In this document: piece after piece, positions 3,999 through 62,939 of the stretch | How the letters are laid out: each line of letters opens with the position of its first letter | Numbering within the stretch: the stretch's first letter is position 1 | Origin: Escherichia coli | GTDB lineage: Bacteria; Pseudomonadota; Gammaproteobacteria; Enterobacterales; Enterobacteriaceae | DNA length: 64,000 bases | Direction: 5' to 3' (one strand) | Assembly (NCBI RefSeq): GCF_003334785.1 | Contig: NZ_QOWV01000003.1 | The notes under the pieces: model-generated | Told to the model about the DNA's origin: nothing | Database searches by the model: none | The model's input: the letters and a program-made list of their open reading frames with translations, nothing else | Position numbers and translations under genes: made by a program

Positions 3999-4859
3999 CT
4001 ATTTATTAACATTAAAAAGATGGCTTACGCTTTCGGCTAACGTTGTCGTTGGGCGGCCAATCAATTTGCTCAGCGTTTTGCTGTCATCAAACAGACCGCC
4101 TTTCGATGCGCCAACGTCAGAATCCGCCAGCATATCCGCCAGTCCGTCAGGCAGGCCAACGCTTTTCAGCGCCGCAGCGAAATCGGTTTCGCTCAGATTT
4201 TGATAGGTAACCTGTTTGCCGCTCTGTTTGGTCAGCTCTGCCGCTAACTGTGTCAACGTCCAGGCACTATCGCCCGCCAGCTCGTAAACCTTGCCTTCGT
4301 GACCGGCTTCGCTAATCACGCGTGCCGCAGCTGCCGCATAATCTGCCCGCGTTGCCGAGGCAATTTTGCCATCGCCCGCGGCACCGATAAATACGCCGTG
4401 CTCCAGTGCTGCCGGGGCGCTGGCGAGATAGTTTTCGGTGTACCAGCCGTTGCGCAGCAGGGTGTAAACGATGCCAGAATCAGCCAACATTTTCTCCGTC
4501 TCGATGTGCTCATCGGCGAGGCCGAGCGGAGATTTATCCGCGTGAAGCAGACTGGTATAAGCGATAAATTTCACGCCAGCCGTCTTTGCGGCATTAATAA
4601 CATTACGATGCTGCGGGGCACGTTGACCCACTTCGCTGGAAGAGATCAGCAGTAGTTTTTCCACTCCCTGAAGTGCAGATGTCAGTGCGGCTTCATCGCC
4701 GTAGTCAGCCTGACGCACGGTAATGCCTTGTGCTGTCAGTGCCTGGGCTTTTGCCGGATTACGAACGATAGCCACTATTTGGCTGGCAGGAACCGTTTTC
4801 ATCAAGGATTTAATAACATAGTGACCAAGTTGGCCAGTGGCACCAGTAATAGCGATCAT
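3999..4859 (-). CDS. qorB: NAD(P)H:quinone oxidoreductase (NmrA-like SDR)
   Basis: 286 aa; N-terminal Rossmann motif MIAITGATGQLG; synteny (ytfG). Confidence 0.9.
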   Translation of the reverse strand: MIAITGATGQLGHYVIKSLMKTVPASQIVAIVRNPAKAQALTAQGITVRQADYGDEAALTSALQGVEKLLLISSSEVGQRAPQHRNVINAAKTAGVKFIAYTSLLHADKSPLGLADEHIETEKMLADSGIVYTLLRNGWYTENYLASAPAALEHGVFIGAAGDGKIASATRADYAAAAARVISEAGHEGKVYELAGDSAWTLTQLAAELTKQSGKQVTYQNLSETDFAAALKSVGLPDGLADMLADSDVGASKGGLFDDSKTLSKLIGRPTTTLAESVSHLFNVNK

Positions 4860-54977: not shown

Positions 54978-55240
54978 CTACGCTCCTGAATCTTAAAGAC
55001 AACGGCGGTGGCTACAGATAGAATTGCAAGCTTTCGTAACTCATGTCCGCTGTTGCGATGACTTCGTGTTAATCTTAACGTTATTACGGCATTGGCACGT
55101 CAGAACAAAATCTGAGAGGTGAATCCGTTGAGTATAATTATCTTAGCGACGATTTCGACGACTCAAGAGAATAAATGACGTTTAAGCCATGAAACAAGCT
55201 AAAATCCTGCAAAAGACGAGTTTTTACGGGCGTATTTAAA

Positions 55241-56341
55241 GTGATAATCATAAGATATCTGGTGCGGGAGACGCTCAAAAGCCAGCTGGCGATACTCTTC
55301 ATCTTGCTTTTGATCTTCTTCTGTCAAAAGTTAGTGAGGATCCTCGGCGCAGCGGTTGACGGCGATATTCCGGCGAATCTGGTGCTCTCCCTTCTCGGGT
55401 TGGGCGTGCCGGAAATGGCGCAGCTTATCCTGCCATTAAGCCTGTTCCTCGGGCTGCTGATGACGCTGGGCAAACTGTATACCGAAAGTGAAATTACGGT
55501 AATGCATGCCTGCGGCCTGAGCAAAGCGGTTCTGGTGAAAGCGGCAATGATCCTTGCGGTATTCACGGCAATCGTCGCGGCGGTTAACGTGATGTGGGCG
55601 GGACCGTGGTCATCGCGTCATCAGGATGAAGTGTTAGCAGAAGCGAAAGCGAACCCTGGCATGGCGGCGCTGGCGCAAGGGCAATTCCAGCAAGCGACTA
55701 ATGGCAGCTCGGTGCTGTTCATCGAAAGCGTTGACGGCAGCGATTTCAAAGATGTGTTCCTCGCACAAATTCGACCAAAAGGTAATGCACGTCCTTCTGT
55801 GGTGGTGGCCGATTCCGGACATTTAACCCAGCTGCGCGACGGCTCCCAGGTCGTCACTCTCAACCAGGGAACGCGCTTCGAAGGCACTGCACTGTTACGT
55901 GATTTCCGCATTACGGATTTCCAGGATTATCAGGCGATCATTGGTCACCAGGCGGTGGCGCTCGACCCGAACGATACCGACCAGATGGACATGTGCACAT
56001 TGTGGAACACTGACACCGATCGTGCTCGCGCAGAACTGAACTGGCGTATCACGTTGGTATTCACCGTGTTTATGATGGCACTTATGGTCGTACCGCTGAG
56101 CGTGGTTAACCCACGTCAGGGACGCGTACTGTCGATGCTGCCAGCCATGCTGCTGTATCTACTTTTCTTCCTGATCCAGACCTCCCTGAAATCGAACGGC
56201 GGTAAAGGTAAGCTGGACCCGACGCTGTGGATGTGGACCGTTAACCTGATTTATCTGGCTTTGGCGATTGTTCTCAACCTTTGGGACACCGTGCCGGTCC
56301 GCCGCCTGCGCGCCAGTTTTTCGCGTAAAGGAGCGGTGTGA
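55241..56341 (+). CDS. lptF: LPS export ABC permease LptF (GTG start)
   Basis: 366 aa; MIIIRYLVRETLKSQLAILFILLLIFF; YjgP/YjgQ permease family. Confidence 0.93.
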   Translation: MIIIRYLVRETLKSQLAILFILLLIFFCQKLVRILGAAVDGDIPANLVLSLLGLGVPEMAQLILPLSLFLGLLMTLGKLYTESEITVMHACGLSKAVLVKAAMILAVFTAIVAAVNVMWAGPWSSRHQDEVLAEAKANPGMAALAQGQFQQATNGSSVLFIESVDGSDFKDVFLAQIRPKGNARPSVVVADSGHLTQLRDGSQVVTLNQGTRFEGTALLRDFRITDFQDYQAIIGHQAVALDPNDTDQMDMCTLWNTDTDRARAELNWRITLVFTVFMMALMVVPLSVVNPRQGRVLSMLPAMLLYLLFFLIQTSLKSNGGKGKLDPTLWMWTVNLIYLALAIVLNLWDTVPVRRLRASFSRKGAV

Positions 56342-57423
56342 TGCAACCTTTTGGCGTACTTGACCGCTATATCGGTAAAACTATTTTCACCACCATCATG
56401 ATGACGCTGTTCATGCTGGTGTCGCTGTCGGGCATTATCAAATTTGTCGATCAGTTGAAAAAAGCCGGGCAGGGGAGTTACGACGCGTTAGGCGCAGGAA
56501 TGTATACCTTGCTGAGCGTGCCGAAAGATGTGCAAATCTTCTTCCCGATGGCGGCTCTGCTTGGGGCGTTGCTTGGTCTTGGGATGCTGGCGCAGCGCAG
56601 CGAACTGGTGGTGATGCAGGCTTCTGGTTTTACCCGTATGCAGGTGGCGCTGTCGGTGATGAAAACCGCCATTCCGCTGGTCTTGCTGACGATGGCGATT
56701 GGCGAATGGGTCGCGCCGCAGGGCGAGCAGATGGCGCGTAACTACCGTGCGCAGGCGATGTACGGCGGCTCGTTGCTCTCTACCCAGCAAGGCTTATGGG
56801 CGAAAGATGGCAACAACTTCGTCTACATTGAGCGGGTTAAAGGTGACGAAGAGTTAGGTGGCATCAGCATTTATGCCTTTAACGAAAATCGTCGTCTGCA
56901 ATCCGTACGCTATGCCGCTACTGCGAAGTTTGACCCGGAACATAAAGTCTGGCGTCTGTCGCAGGTTGATGAATCTGATCTGACCAATCCGAAACAGATC
57001 ACCGGTTCGCAGACGGTGAGCGGCACCTGGAAAACCAACCTCACGCCAGACAAACTGGGCGTGGTGGCGCTGGACCCGGATGCACTCTCAATCAGCGGTT
57101 TGCACAACTACGTGAAGTATCTGAAGTCGAGCGGTCAGGATGCCGGACGTTATCAGCTCAATATGTGGAGCAAAATCTTCCAGCCGCTATCCGTGGCGGT
57201 GATGATGCTGATGGCGCTGTCGTTCATCTTTGGCCCACTGCGTAGCGTACCGATGGGCGTGCGTGTGGTCACCGGTATCAGCTTCGGTTTTGTCTTCTAC
57301 GTACTGGACCAGATCTTCGGCCCGCTGACGTTGGTTTACGGCATCCCGCCGATTATCGGCGCACTGTTGCCAAGCGCCAGCTTCTTCTTAATCAGCCTGT
57401 GGCTGTTAATGAGAAAATCGTAA
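56341..57423 (+). CDS. lptG: LPS export ABC permease LptG
   Basis: 360 aa from the ATG at 56341 (overlaps the lptF stop, tgATG). Confidence 0.93.
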   Translation: MQPFGVLDRYIGKTIFTTIMMTLFMLVSLSGIIKFVDQLKKAGQGSYDALGAGMYTLLSVPKDVQIFFPMAALLGALLGLGMLAQRSELVVMQASGFTRMQVALSVMKTAIPLVLLTMAIGEWVAPQGEQMARNYRAQAMYGGSLLSTQQGLWAKDGNNFVYIERVKGDEELGGISIYAFNENRRLQSVRYAATAKFDPEHKVWRLSQVDESDLTNPKQITGSQTVSGTWKTNLTPDKLGVVALDPDALSISGLHNYVKYLKSSGQDAGRYQLNMWSKIFQPLSVAVMMLMALSFIFGPLRSVPMGVRVVTGISFGFVFYVLDQIFGPLTLVYGIPPIIGALLPSASFFLISLWLLMRKS

Positions 57424-57484
57424 CCAAGCAAGGGAGCGAAAGCTCCCTTTCACATTGTTGATAAAGTCAAATACGAGTTCGATC

Positions 57485-57530
57485 GGTCCCCTCGCCCCTT
57501 TGGGGAGAGGGTTAGGGTGAGGGGGACAGA
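57485..57530. repeat. GC-rich palindromic intergenic element (resembles a Box C-type repeat)
   Basis: ggtcccctcgcccctttggggagagggttagggtgagggggaca between convergent lptG and yjgR; family assignment is from memory. Confidence 0.35.
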
Positions 57531-57541
57531 TCGCGCCTGAC

Positions 57542-59044
57542 TTACCTTCTTCTCCCTCCCAGCAAACTCCCCAACATCCCGCGTACAATCTGATTCGTCA
57601 CCTGGCGAGCGGCGCTTTTGGCCATTGTCTGCACCACACCATCTTTCTTCCCGCCGCGTGGTCCGGTAGTGCCGAACAAAATATCCTTCAATCCACCAAG
57701 AATGCCGTCATCTACCGCTATCTCTTTCCCTTTCGCTGGAGGATTATTTTGCTGTTCAATACTCGCCTGTACGCCTTTTTGCAACATCTCATAGGCGGAT
57801 TCCCGGTCCACGTCATCCTCGTACTTGCCATACACCGGGGAGTGGTTAATCAAGCCATTGCGCTCATCTTCCGTCACCGGTCCCATCCGCGAACAAGGCG
57901 CAATCACCATCGCCCGTTCCACCACAGAAGGACTTCCTTTTGCATCGAGAAACGAGATTAACGCCTCGCCGGTCCCCAGTTCCTGGATTGCCTTTTCGGT
58001 ATCAAACGCCGGATTGGCCCGCATGGTTTGCGCCGCAGCTTTTACCGCTTTCTGATCTTTTGGCGTAAAAGCCCGCAAAGCGTGCTGAACGCGATTACCG
58101 AGCTGGCCGAGCACATTATCCGGAATATCAGACGGGTTTTGCGAAACGAACCAGACGCCCACGCCTTTTGAGCGAATAAGCCTTATCACCTGCTCAATCT
58201 TATCCAGCAGTACCTGCGGTGCATCGTTAAACAGCAGATGTGCTTCGTCGAAGAAAAACACCAGTTTTGGCTTCTCCAGATCGCCCGCTTCCGGCAATTG
58301 TTCATACAACTCTGAAATCATCCACAGCAGGCTGGCGGCGTACAGTTTCGGCATCTGATAAAGCTTCTCGGCGCTGAGGATATTAATAACGCCTTTACCG
58401 TTGGCATCGGTGCGCATCAAGTCTTTGATATCCAGCATCGGCTCACCAAAGAAGTGTGCTGCGCCTTGCTGTTCCAGCGACAACAGCCCGCGCTGGATGG
58501 CACCAACCGATGCGCTACTGATATTTCCGTACTGATTCTGGAAAGATTTGGCGTTATCGCCGATGTACTGGGTAATCGCCCGCAGATCTTTAAAGTCGAG
58601 CAGTAACAGCCCCTGATCGTCAGCAATTCGGAAGATGATATTCAGCACGCCAGATTGCACATCGTTGAGATTCAACAGCCGCGCCAGCAACAGCGGCCCC
58701 AGATCCGAAACCGTCGCCCGCACCGGATGGCCTTTCTCGCCAAAGATATCCCACACCACCACCGGATTAGCATGCGGTTGCCAGTCATTTACGCCGATAT
58801 TTTTAAGCCTTGCGAGCAGTTTTTCCGACGCCGTTCCTGCCTGCGCGATACCGGTCAGATCGCCTTTCACATCGGCCATAAACACCGGCACGCCGATTTC
58901 CGATAGAGACTCCGCCAGTTTTTGCAGCGTGACAGTTTTACCCGTCCCCGTTGCGCCAGTAATCAGCCCGTGACGGTTAGCCATTCCCGGCAGTAAAAAC
59001 AGTTCTGTGTCCGGCGTGCGGGCAATTAACAGGGGTTCGCTCAT
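57542..59044 (-). CDS. yjgR: DUF853-family P-loop NTPase
   Basis: 500 aa from the ATG at 59044 ([19 protein letters not shown]...); Walker A GATGTGKT. Confidence 0.9.
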
Positions 59045-59173
59045 GAGATTTCCTCCAGTTTCCTGCCTGGAGTATAGGCAACGGCTGTGCACTCTTCACC
59101 GCTAAATTCAGCAGATTGCGAGACGCCTTCCAAAGAGATTTAAGTGCCGGGCGACAGGCTCCCGGCAAAGGGA

Positions 59174-60193
59174 TCAGAAGTCGGCTTTCAGGACCACGCG
59201 GTAGCGCGCTTTACCATCGCGTACATGCTGGATGGCGTCGTTAATTTTCGACATCGGGAACAGTTCGGTGGTCGGCGCAACCTTGCTGCGGGCGGCAAAA
59301 CGCATCAGCTTACGCAGCTCATAAGGCGTGCCGGTAGCAGAACCAGAGATGCTGCGGTCGCCCGCAATTAACGTAAAGGCCGGAACAGACAGCGGCGTGA
59401 GAACCGCACCGACCGTATGGAAATTACCGCCATAGGTCAGCGCCTCAAAATAAGGCTGCCAGTCGAGGCTGACGTTCACAGTATTGATAATGAGATCAAA
59501 CTGCCCCGACAGGGCTTTCAGTGCCTGCGGATCGCGGCTATTCACCACTTTATCGGTACCCATCGCCAGTACTTCCTGCTCTTTCGCCGGATTAGAACTA
59601 AAGGCCGTCACCTCGCATCCCATTGCGTGCAGAAGTTTTATAGCGATATGCCCCAGCCCGCCAATACCAATTACCCCAACGCGGCTGGTAGCAGTGATAT
59701 GGTGCATCAACAGTGGTTTAAAGACCGTGATACCGCCGCACAACAGCGGCCCGGCGGACTCGATATCAATATTTTCTGGCAGTGGAATCACCCATTGCCA
59801 GTCCGCACGCAACTTCTCGGCAAAGCCACCGCGATTCATAATCGTCGGCACCGCACCTTGCTCGCAGTTGATCTGATTACCGCTAATACAGGTGTCGCAG
59901 TGACCACAGCTACGCGCCGTCCAGCCAATCCCGACACGCTGACCGACCTGCAAACCTTTATCCTGCGCGGCGCTCCCGAGTGCCACCACGCGCCCAATCA
60001 CCTCATGCCCGGCAACCAGCGGATATTGTGAAAATCCCCATTCGTTATCGATCATCGACAGATCGGAATGACAAATCCCGCAGTAATCCACCTGCACTTC
60101 AACATCTTGTGGCTTCAGCTCACCGGGATCGTACTCATAAACTTCCAGTTCGCCGCCCGCTTCTTTTGCGGCATAGCTTTTTATCATCGACAT
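59174..60193 (-). CDS. ahr: Zn-dependent NADPH aldehyde reductase (Ahr/YjgB)
   Basis: 339 aa from the ATG at 60193 ([26 protein letters not shown]...); MDR alcohol dehydrogenase motifs ([14 protein letters not shown]). Confidence 0.9.
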
Positions 60194-60388
60194 TTTTGGG
60201 TCCTTCTCTGGTGTTGTTTGGGAAGTGTAGAGCATGGCAGGGCGGGGTGCCTGGAGTGTGACAAAGGTTACATATCGCTGAGTGTAATGCTGAAAATTTC
60301 AGCACTTAGCGAGGTGGGTGCAAGCTGGCGCTTGCATGGTGGCGTGCGACAGGTATAATCCACAACGTTTTCCGCATACCTCTTCAGT

Positions 60389-60473
60389 GCCGAAGTGGCG
60401 AAATCGGTAGACGCAGTTGATTCAAAATCAACCGTAGAAATACGTGCCGGTTCGAGTCCGGCCTTCGGCACCA
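60389..60473 (+). tRNA. leuX: tRNA-Leu (anticodon CAA)
   Basis: 85-nt sequence gccgaagtggcg...ttcaaaa...ggttcgagtccggccttcggcacca with long variable arm, CAA anticodon loop and 3' CCA. Confidence 0.9.
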
Positions 60474-60563
60474 AGTCTTATCTAAGTCGTTGTTTTAAAA
60501 CAATTTAATCCATAATTTTGCTTGAAATCGCGTAGCCCCTCTTACAAAAGGGTATACGAGGCG

Positions 60564-62474
60564 ATGTCTCAGCGATATAAACTCTATCGTCGAACCAGCG
60601 GCATTTATGTTGTCCGCATTAGCATTCCCCAACGTTTTCGTCGATACGCAGGACAGTGTGAGATTCACACTTCAACAGGCACTCACGATCTTCATGAAGC
60701 AAAGCAGAAGTCCGCGCTCCTGTTGGCGGTCTGGTATCAGACCTTACAAGAGTATGAACAATTGGATTATCGAACTTTAAGTGACTGCGCCCCGCTGCTT
60801 GCTGGTGAGGGTATGATCTCGCTTTCTAACTTTGCTCAGTCAGTTGAGTTGCCTGTTGCGCAATTAATACAGGCGGTGATGAACCGTAATCTGCCCGTAT
60901 TCTGGCTGGCGACGGGGCAGGCTGGCTTTTATGTTGCAGCGCTCTCTGAGGCTGAGCTAGACCCGCTTGATGGCAGTTACGTTCTTAATTATGGCGAAGA
61001 GAAGGGTATCGAGGGGGTTGCTAAAGGCTATCTGCAACTCACTGCGCAACCAGCACATTTACGTAACATTATTAGCGACGGTTATTCAGAAGCTTCGGTG
61101 TTCAAAACTGCCGGAAGCGACGCTAAAGGCGGTTGGTTTTTCACCTCCGGTTGGCCGGTAATTAAACCCGATACGCTTTTGATCAATAAAGTCCATGCAG
61201 AAAGCCTAAGGCTTGATTGGCTGGCTAAGACCACGCCTCCAGTCGCTAGTGTTCATCCTACCGTGCCTCTTGCCGCTCCTGCCCCTACTATCGATAACGA
61301 GTATGTTAATCGAAAGTATTACACTAAGAATCTGTCGTGGTTATGCTCTGAATATCTAAAGCATCGGCGCAAGGGCAAGGTATCGGAGTCGGCTATAAGT
61401 GATATCCGTAACTATTTCAGCTTTATGATCGAAGCGATGGGTGACATTCAGTTGGAAGATTTTGATCGCGATTTCCTCCGGGCTTATGAGAGCAAACTGC
61501 GCACGATCCCAGCAAACCGTAATTTAGTCAAAGCTAAATATGGAGTGAAAACGCTGGATCAGTTAATCGCCAAAGCGGCAGAATGCGGCGATAAATTGAT
61601 GACTGAGGAATCCGTTAGGAAGTATATCAACGGCATTTATGGTGCAATGAAGTGGGCTGTTGCTGACGGTAAGCTACTGAAATCGCCATGCGAAAACTTT
61701 TTTCCATCCGATGATAAAGATGAGCGAGATCAGGATCACACTGACATATTTGAACCGCATGAAATTAAAGCGATTTTTTCGTTACCGTGGTTTGAGGCTG
61801 GAACTGTTGAACGCAATGCGCAAGGGCGATTCCATCAATATTGCCCGTTTAACTATTGGGCACCTTTGCTGGGCTTGATGACGGGGGCGCGAGTTAATGA
61901 AATCGCTCAGTTACTGCTGAGTGATGTTCTGGCAGACGACGGCGTCTATTATTTGAACCTTGAAAGCGATAATGAAAGCGGAAAGAAACTCAAAAATGCT
62001 AATGCTCGCCGCAAGATTCCGCTCCATTCAAAGCTGATTAGTCTCGGTTTCATCGACTACGTGAACGCCTTAAAAGATGCAGGGTATACCCGTCTCTTCC
62101 CGGAGCTTAAACCACATAAAACAAAAGGCTATGGTAGGCCAGTTTCCGCATGGTTCAATGAATCGTTGCTTGCGGGGCGGTTGAAACTCGAGAGGAACAG
62201 AAGCAAATCTTTCCATTCTTTTCGCCACTCAGTTTCGACTTTGCTCAAGGAGAAGGGCGTTAGCTCAGAATTACGAGCGCAGCTACTTGGGCATGTGCGC
62301 GGCGAAACTGAAACGGAAGTGCGATATAGCAAAGACCTCAAACCAATTCATATGATTGAAGTCGTGGAGAAAATTGATTTTTCGTTACCTGATATAGCGG
62401 AATTCAACATTCCTGACGGGCTGGATGCTGTCAGAGATGCGTTGCGAAGAAAGCGTGGCAAACAAACAGGTTGA
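60564..62474 (+). CDS. large tyrosine-type site-specific recombinase/integrase (~636 aa)
   Basis: ATG at 60564 with acgagg RBS; C-terminal catalytic motifs TGARVNE (Arg), HSFRHSVSTLL (HxxR), LLGHVRGETETEVRYSK (His, Tyr); long N-terminal and central extensions. Confidence 0.85.
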   Translation: MSQRYKLYRRTSGIYVVRISIPQRFRRYAGQCEIHTSTGTHDLHEAKQKSALLLAVWYQTLQEYEQLDYRTLSDCAPLLAGEGMISLSNFAQSVELPVAQLIQAVMNRNLPVFWLATGQAGFYVAALSEAELDPLDGSYVLNYGEEKGIEGVAKGYLQLTAQPAHLRNIISDGYSEASVFKTAGSDAKGGWFFTSGWPVIKPDTLLINKVHAESLRLDWLAKTTPPVASVHPTVPLAAPAPTIDNEYVNRKYYTKNLSWLCSEYLKHRRKGKVSESAISDIRNYFSFMIEAMGDIQLEDFDRDFLRAYESKLRTIPANRNLVKAKYGVKTLDQLIAKAAECGDKLMTEESVRKYINGIYGAMKWAVADGKLLKSPCENFFPSDDKDERDQDHTDIFEPHEIKAIFSLPWFEAGTVERNAQGRFHQYCPFNYWAPLLGLMTGARVNEIAQLLLSDVLADDGVYYLNLESDNESGKKLKNANARRKIPLHSKLISLGFIDYVNALKDAGYTRLFPELKPHKTKGYGRPVSAWFNESLLAGRLKLERNRSKSFHSFRHSVSTLLKEKGVSSELRAQLLGHVRGETETEVRYSKDLKPIHMIEVVEKIDFSLPDIAEFNIPDGLDAVRDALRRKRGKQTG

Positions 62475-62606
62475 ATCAGTTACTATTCAGTTGAGTGATG
62501 CTTGAATGCGCTGGGACGCTTCCTGGCGCATTTTTTATTAAGGGTGGTGGATTTCATAGTGCTGAATTTGGAGACGCTCAAAACACGTTTGGTGAAACTT
62601 GATGAC

Positions 62607-62939
62607 CTACGATTGCACCCGCAGCCCTTCTACGCTTTCTGATGGTAGATTTATCACTGTTTTAATGCTGGCCTCTATGTTGCCAATGATGTCTTCGCGC
62701 GGGCCGCTGCGCCAGTCATCGCTTGCGTAAAAAGCGTCGAGAACCGTAGTCATGCTTTTAGGGCTGACAAAGGCGCGAATCAGGTAATAGCAGTCCGGGT
62801 CATGCAGAGAGTTACCAAACGAAACAACATCGATCCCGTGGCGTTGGTGTAGGGGAACACTGATTTCCTGCATAATGGCGTGAAAAGCGGCACCGCTGCC
62901 TTTGCGTAAGGTGTATTGCAGTATCTCGACGGTTCTCAA
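62607..62939 (-). CDS. hypothetical small protein, possibly NIPSNAP-like (dimeric alpha+beta barrel); TTG start
   Basis: 110 aa ORF convergent with the integrase; ggag RBS 8 nt before TTG; pattern VEILQYTLRKGSGAAF...HGIDVVSFGNSLHDPDCYYLIRAF...FYASDDW judged by eye only. Confidence 0.35.
   Translation of the reverse strand: MRTVEILQYTLRKGSGAAFHAIMQEISVPLHQRHGIDVVSFGNSLHDPDCYYLIRAFVSPKSMTTVLDAFYASDDWRSGPREDIIGNIEASIKTVINLPSESVEGLRVQS

Follow-up and report, generated by a model that had tools for sequence, protein, structure and literature searches.

The 129 bp that separate yjgR from ahr in the 64-kb window (the whole stretch of E. coli DNA analysed here, 64,000 nucleotides) are, with a probability that we put at about 0.88, an empty-site allele of the yjgR–ahr junction, one of two old alternatives in E. 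coli. The empty site would consist of two parts, a 39-bp yjgR leader beside the ATG that is common to all alleles, and a 90-bp segment carrying a stem-loop after the ahr stop codon and, putatively, the distal portion of the yjgR promoter. The K-12-type allele has the 5.1-kb idnK/idnDOTR (GntII) cluster in place of the 90 bp. The structure and the frequencies of the alleles were observed directly in the genomes compared below.

The yjgR–ahr junction in the window and in K-12

In the window, yjgR and ahr were contiguous and in the same relative orientation, with no genes between them. The sequence, the translations and the RefSeq annotation of E. coli E2865 agreed on a spacer of exactly 129 bp (59045–59173), confirming the adjacency claimed in a sequence-only reading of the window. 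The E2865 genome was 100% identical to the window over 55000–60473, where RefSeq annotates yjgR and ahr. At the amino acid level, YjgR and Ahr of the window were 98.4% and 98.5% identical, respectively, to their K-12 counterparts, and the leuX gene carries the annotation tRNA-Leu in E2865 and leuX in K-12. The features of the junction and its surroundings are as follows.

57542–59044, minus strand: yjgR, encoding a HerA-like/DUF853 P-loop protein of 500 aa (open reading frame and translation)
59042–59044, minus strand: yjgR start codon
59045–59083, minus strand: 39-bp yjgR leader with TATACT and a GGAGGAA Shine-Dalgarno sequence, found in idn-less and idn-carrying alleles
59084–59173, minus strand: 90-bp segment of the idn-less allele, standing for the 5,087-bp idn block of K-12
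59145–59167, minus strand: GC-rich stem-loop 3' of the ahr stop codon, probable hairpin of the ahr 3' end
59174–60193, minus strand: ahr (yjgB), encoding an NADPH-dependent aldehyde reductase of 339 aa (open reading frame and translation)
59174–59176, minus strand: ahr stop codon
60389–60473, plus strand: leuX tRNA-Leu (Rfam tRNA match, 59.4 bits), where the island is integrated and the conserved segment ends
60563–62474, plus strand: large site-specific integrase of ~637 aa with which the leuX island begins (open reading frame 60522–62474)

We give practically no credence to an assembly artefact, such as a collapsed region, as the explanation of the adjacency. The identical junction (100%) was present in the independent complete genomes E2865, JCM 5491, WCHEC035148, Seattle 1946, and others, and no point in favour of an artefact was found.

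The gene order given for K-12 in the earlier reading, with idnR-idnT-idnO-idnD-idnK between yjgR and ahr, was borne out by the MG1655 annotation, which reads yjgR, idnR, idnT, idnO, idnD, idnK, ahr, leuX. This is the GntII (subsidiary gluconate/L-idonate) locus idnK-idnDOTR of E. coli K-12, reportedly described by Bausch et al. in 1998 (J Bacteriol 180:3704). The absence of the cluster from the window was likewise upheld, both by a BLAST comparison with K-12 and by a search with the Idn proteins. Across the 64 kb no idn ortholog was detected, and the Idn proteins matched only paralogues of 21–33% identity; the idn DNA block had no match in the window at E ≤ 1e-3.

BLAST homology to K-12 extended from 57525 to 59083 and resumed from 59174 on. 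The homology on the yjgR side thus ended 39 bp upstream of the yjgR ATG, and that on the ahr side restarted exactly at the ahr stop codon. Between the two breakpoints (59083/59084 and 59173/59174), the window has 90 bp and K-12 has 5,087 bp (K-12 locus L001, 6104–11190). Only 3 bp separate the stop codons of idnK and ahr in K-12, and yjgR lies directly downstream of idnR. The window and the K-12 GntII locus occupy the same site, with the flanking genes pepA, lptF, lptG and yjgR on one side and ahr and leuX on the other being 95.7–98.8% identical, but the window lacks all five idn genes and has 90 bp that are missing from K-12. The difference between the two is a replacement, neither a plain insertion nor a plain deletion.

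The earlier reading had proposed searching the 129-bp spacer for residual idn fragments. The search was run and none were found: when the 90 bp were compared with the idn blocks of K-12 and Citrobacter sp. FP75, nothing better than 10-mers with E = 0.62 came up. The motif GCG(A/C)GACGCCT occurs in both the spacer and the 5' end of idnT, and was rejected as a remnant, being below BLAST significance and consistent with chance.

The G+C content was 47.3% for the idn block, 53.8% for yjgR, 55.6% for ahr, and 55.6% for the 90-bp segment, so that the K-12 idn block has the deviant base composition of mobile genomic islands. No integrase, transposase or IS genes were found between yjgR and ahr in the K-12 annotation, and the idn block had no flanking direct repeats or target-site duplication, the longest repeat at its borders being 6 nt.

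The stem-loop at the 3' end of ahr

The spacer had been said to contain a terminator-like hairpin. The inverted repeat in question, at 59145–59167, has 7-bp arms and a 9-nt loop (tgccggg / cgacaggct / cccggca). Of 5000 shuffled versions of the spacer, 284 had a perfect 7-bp inverted repeat with a loop of 3–12 nt, and the hairpin, taken alone, is therefore only mildly unusual. On folding, the stem of 7 bp contained 6 G-C pairs, had an energy of −13.5 kcal/mol, and started 9 nt past the ahr stop codon. Four empty-site alleles were folded and gave stem-loops of 7–10 bp, starting 9–14 nt past the ahr stop codon; stems of 9–10 bp at the same position were seen in E. coli DG341-1, E. albertii and C. 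werkmanii.

A GC-rich stem-loop a few nucleotides after a stop codon, conserved in position, is what the hairpin shares with Rho-independent terminators. It differs from them in that the stem is not followed by a run of U (the tail on the ahr strand is CUUAAAUC) and in that a scan of 58900–59400 for the intrinsic terminator consensus returned 0 sites. What stands of the earlier description is a position-conserved stem-loop that departs from a canonical intrinsic terminator on these two points. We would describe the hairpin as a stem-loop at the 3' end of ahr that is conserved and has no U-tract, and its position and conservation suggest that it may act as a weak or atypical terminator or as a transcript stabiliser.

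A sigma-70 consensus promoter scan of 58900–59400 found 0 promoters. The folding of a 93-nt stretch (the 90 bp and the ahr stop codon) was no better than that of shuffled sequences (z = 0.11), and an Rfam search of 58800–60600 at E ≤ 1 returned leuX only, with no known sRNA or riboswitch in the spacer. The 90 bp may hold the upstream part of a putative yjgR promoter.

Distribution of the alleles in E. coli and other Enterobacteriaceae

Among 5,426 complete E. coli genomes, the contiguous yjgR–ahr junction, defined as a single alignment across the junction (93.9–100% identity), was found in 3,213 (59%), and the idn block was present in 2,055 (38%). By subtraction, about 160 genomes (3%) are in a third state. 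The K-12 arrangement is thus the minority form at yjgR–ahr and the idn-less form is the majority. The idn block was present in unrelated backgrounds, including K-12, BL21, O104:H4 2009EL-2071, SMS-3-5, and an ST1193 strain. Idn-less backgrounds included E2865, O55:H7 DEC5D, O25b:H4-ST131 strain 4993, O91 RM7190, and APEC O78:H51, and the ST131 genome H137 had the same contiguous junction at 97.4% identity.

The K-12-type yjgR–idnR junction was found in 2,052 of the 2,055 idn-carrying genomes, and yjgR was single-copy (5,430 places in the 5,426 genomes); therefore, idn in E. coli is essentially always at this site. The sequence-only reading had named two observations that would speak against it, idn genes located elsewhere in reference genomes and idn genes downstream in this strain. 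The same junction count places idn at yjgR in the references, and the downstream part of the window contained no idn. This indicates, indirectly, that a genome with the contiguous junction lacks idn, and thus that the window strain would also lack it beyond the 64 kb.

One genome in the third state, Z22-6 (locus L088, 7301–7790), has kept the yjgR-proximal 79 bp of the empty-site spacer, and its ahr is cut to a pseudogene fragment of ~190 bp adjoining leuX. A dptFGH phosphorothioation-dependent restriction island comes next in Z22-6.

In the assembly MLI104K2 (NZ_CP116925.1, labelled 'complete' in RefSeq; locus L004, 8440–9040), G, C and A homopolymer tracts lie between yjgR and ahr, and the noisy stretch is annotated as a hypothetical protein and a LacI-family pseudogene. 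We rejected this assembly as an intermediate with decaying idnR and idnT, because the ~600 bp are homopolymer noise unique to it. Where it can be read, its idnR fragment was 96–98% identical to idnR of idn-carrying genomes, and the stretch has the look of an error of basecalling or polishing in a locus that carries idn.

Plasmids, at four places in the genome collection, also had a copy of the 3' part of ahr. In one of them, NZ_CP172870.1 of E. coli strain 35 (83522–83916), it is annotated as a zinc-binding dehydrogenase. The plasmid copy was 94.5–95.4% identical, and the match started exactly at the ahr stop codon (59173/59174 in the window).

Published gene-content surveys describe idn-less E. 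coli. According to the passages on this locus in one report, idnODRKT is accessory, being carried by 83% of the genomes with pks and by about 31% of those without it, is clade-specific within ST95, and is missing from ST95 clade IV (PMC8545132). In the corresponding passages of another, idnK is missing from the ST131 genomes H30 JJ1886 and H22 S250 and present in SE15 (PMC5369007). As far as these passages go, the two reports concern the same presence/absence polymorphism as the one described here, and differ in giving gene presence or absence only, addressing neither how the junction is built nor whether other genera conserve the empty site (PMC5369007, PMC8545132). The idn-negative allele is a common and ordinary gene-content difference that has already been documented.

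For outgroups, one scan of species-representative genomes with YjgR gave six informative Enterobacteriaceae loci, with no Salmonella among them.

E. albertii NBRC 107761: ahr and yjgR adjacent, spacer homologous to that of the window
Citrobacter werkmanii NBRC 105721: ahr and yjgR adjacent, spacer homologous to that of the window
Citrobacter sp. FP75: ahr-idnK-idnD-idnO-idnT-idnR-yjgR
Enterobacter cloacae DSM 26481 (locus L008, 8217–9863): one open reading frame of 548 aa on the opposite strand between ahr and yjgR
Leclercia and Enterobacter sp. Ag1 (loci L009 and L010): ahr–yjgR gap of similar size, 1.8–1.9 kb

Judged by eye only, the 548-aa product of E. cloacae is dihydroxyacetone-kinase-like. 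The ahr–yjgR intergenic site may have taken in different cargo in different genera.

The empty sites of E. albertii and C. werkmanii resemble that of the window in the length of the spacer (~130–140 bp), the homologous 90 bp, the position of the hairpin, and the 39-bp leader. In E. albertii, the locus was about 90% identical to the window overall. In C. werkmanii, the sequence of the hairpin differs, with a stem of CCGGGGGG/CCUCCCGG and a loop of 6. Local alignments of the 90 bp gave z scores of 71 for E. coli DG341-1, 50 for E. albertii, and 20 for C. werkmanii, and none of 300 shuffles scored as high. The 39-bp leader hardly varied between E. coli, E. albertii, the two Citrobacter genomes, E. 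cloacae and Leclercia, the last two sharing only this leader with the window. Partial conservation of the 90 bp in E. cloacae and Leclercia had been suspected by eye and was dropped after a shuffle test; an argument on polarity from these two genomes was dropped as well, because the z scores were only 0.4 and −0.6.

The idn-type sequence of Citrobacter sp. FP75 joins the empty-type sequence upstream of yjgR at the same nucleotide as in E. coli, and on the ahr side the divergence again starts at the ahr stop codon. The Idn proteins of FP75 were 80–96% identical to those of K-12, and Ahr, YjgR and LptG were 91–94% identical. Both alleles are thus present in both Escherichia and Citrobacter, and therefore both are old. 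The convergent ahr and idnK genes of FP75 are separated by a 31-bp spacer (locus L007, 4857–4887) with its own inverted repeat, GCTCAG...CTGAGC; in K-12, in contrast, the 3 bp between the two stop codons leave no hairpin.

Origin and exchange of the two alleles

We lean modestly towards the view that idn was acquired and that the empty site is the older form. The G+C content of the idn block (47.3%) is well outside the range of the flanks and the 90-bp segment (53.8–55.6%). The layout of the empty site, with a hairpin for ahr followed by a leader for yjgR, fits two adjacent genes and has been kept across genera. Having no sequence in common with the idn allele, the 90 bp cannot be what a deletion left at its junction. 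In the most likely course of events, as we infer it, the idn block would have entered an ancestral ahr–hairpin–yjgR arrangement and displaced the 90 bp, and homologous recombination in the flanking genes would then have passed both alleles from lineage to lineage. Against a firm polarity, Escherichia and Citrobacter each have both alleles, no simple insertion or deletion turns one allele into the other, the idn block has no hallmarks of a mobile element, its divergence between genera looks vertical, and the outgroup sample is small.

The opposite direction, in which idn was ancestral in the common ancestor of Escherichia and Citrobacter and was lost in one old deletion that also substituted ~90 bp and then spread by recombination, strikes us as rather unlikely. 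It draws on the fact that Citrobacter sp. FP75 has idn at this site too, where idn has diverged from K-12 about as far as the flanking core genes have, as expected of vertical co-inheritance, and on the diversity within idn (0.2–1.2%), which resembles that of lptF and lptG (0.4–1.7%) and points away from a very recent arrival. It leaves unaccounted for a 90-bp segment that resembles no part of the idn allele, an idn block whose G+C content is about 7–8 points below that of both flanks and of the 90 bp, and an empty site with sensible gene-end and gene-start signals, including a hairpin after ahr that is kept across genera. Far less probable still is a recent deletion, specific to a strain or lineage, that removed idnRTODK from a K-12-like ancestor and left a scar. 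Set against K-12 alone, the window does look like a clean 5-kb absence, but the junction is shared by the 3,213 complete genomes of many backgrounds at the identities given above, and E. albertii and C. werkmanii have an orthologous spacer. A deletion scar would be marked by residual idn sequence or by a junction made of flanks only, and the spacer of the window has neither: it contains no idn residue, and 90 bp of it are missing from K-12.

Pairwise nucleotide identity was compared among six E. coli genomes (the window and loci L001, L003, L085, L086 and L087), with the idn genes taken from the four idn-carrying genomes only. Identities were 93.6–96.4% for yjgR, 94.9–98.4% for ahr, 98.3–99.6% for lptF and lptG, and 98.1–100% for the idn genes. 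In 200-bp windows, there were 6–21 differences in the 5' part of yjgR versus 0–6 inside idn, with a sharp shift at the edge of the block. A very recent sweep of idn in E. coli was considered and rejected, as its diversity is below that of yjgR and ahr yet comparable to that of lptF and lptG; it is therefore the flanks, yjgR and ahr, that are unusual. The shift in diversity fits repeated recombination ending in the flanks, beside the leuX island hotspot, and is no evidence of anything more exotic.

A broader reading, which we hold only tentatively and regard as more doubtful than not, is a trans-genus presence/absence polymorphism. It would combine the occurrence of both alleles in Escherichia and Citrobacter, the same junction nucleotide on the yjgR side, and the core-gene-like divergence; the diverse flanks might result from repeated recombinational exchange or from long-term balancing selection on the use of idonate and 5-ketogluconate.

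Use of L-idonate and 5-ketogluconate is a niche carbon-source trait, loosely linked to gut colonisation. From established knowledge of the pathway, a strain with the allele of the window is predicted to be without GntII and unable to use L-idonate or 5-ketogluconate by that route, and to depend on GntI for gluconate. For annotation, the 90 bp should be treated as a conserved, functional-looking intergenic region rather than as a scar, and the presence of idn alters what adjoins yjgR upstream and ahr downstream. Because the diversity shifts at the edges of the cassette and Citrobacter shares both alleles, the locus is a tidy case of cassette-like exchange of accessory genes near the leuX hotspot; it reveals no new kind of biology, and its importance beyond bookkeeping is small.

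The 100% identity to E2865 stopped at 60473, the last base of leuX, and the sequences were unrelated beyond. The integrase region was 92.9% identical in nucleotides to E. coli DG341-1, where the counterpart is annotated as a site-specific integrase, and the leuX island differed in every other genome inspected. With three yjgR–ahr states across the 5,426 genomes and these differing islands, the window ends, on its 3' side, in a variable region, as the sequence-only reading had proposed. Over 60474–64000, the window was 92.7–92.9% identical to the leuX island of the chicken isolate DG341-1, which carries DUF2971, NIPSNAP and DUF1643 genes.

On the other side of yjgR, a second replacement-type polymorphism was observed in the lptG–yjgR intergenic region (57424–57541; 4402–4561 in the K-12 locus L001). 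The BLAST alignment with K-12 breaks between 57450 and 57525, and a four-genome alignment has about 70 differences per 200 bp there. K-12 and the ST1193 strain have one form, and SMS-3-5 and O104:H4 have the other. The window aligned unbroken to SMS-3-5 and O104:H4 across this region and appears to share their form.
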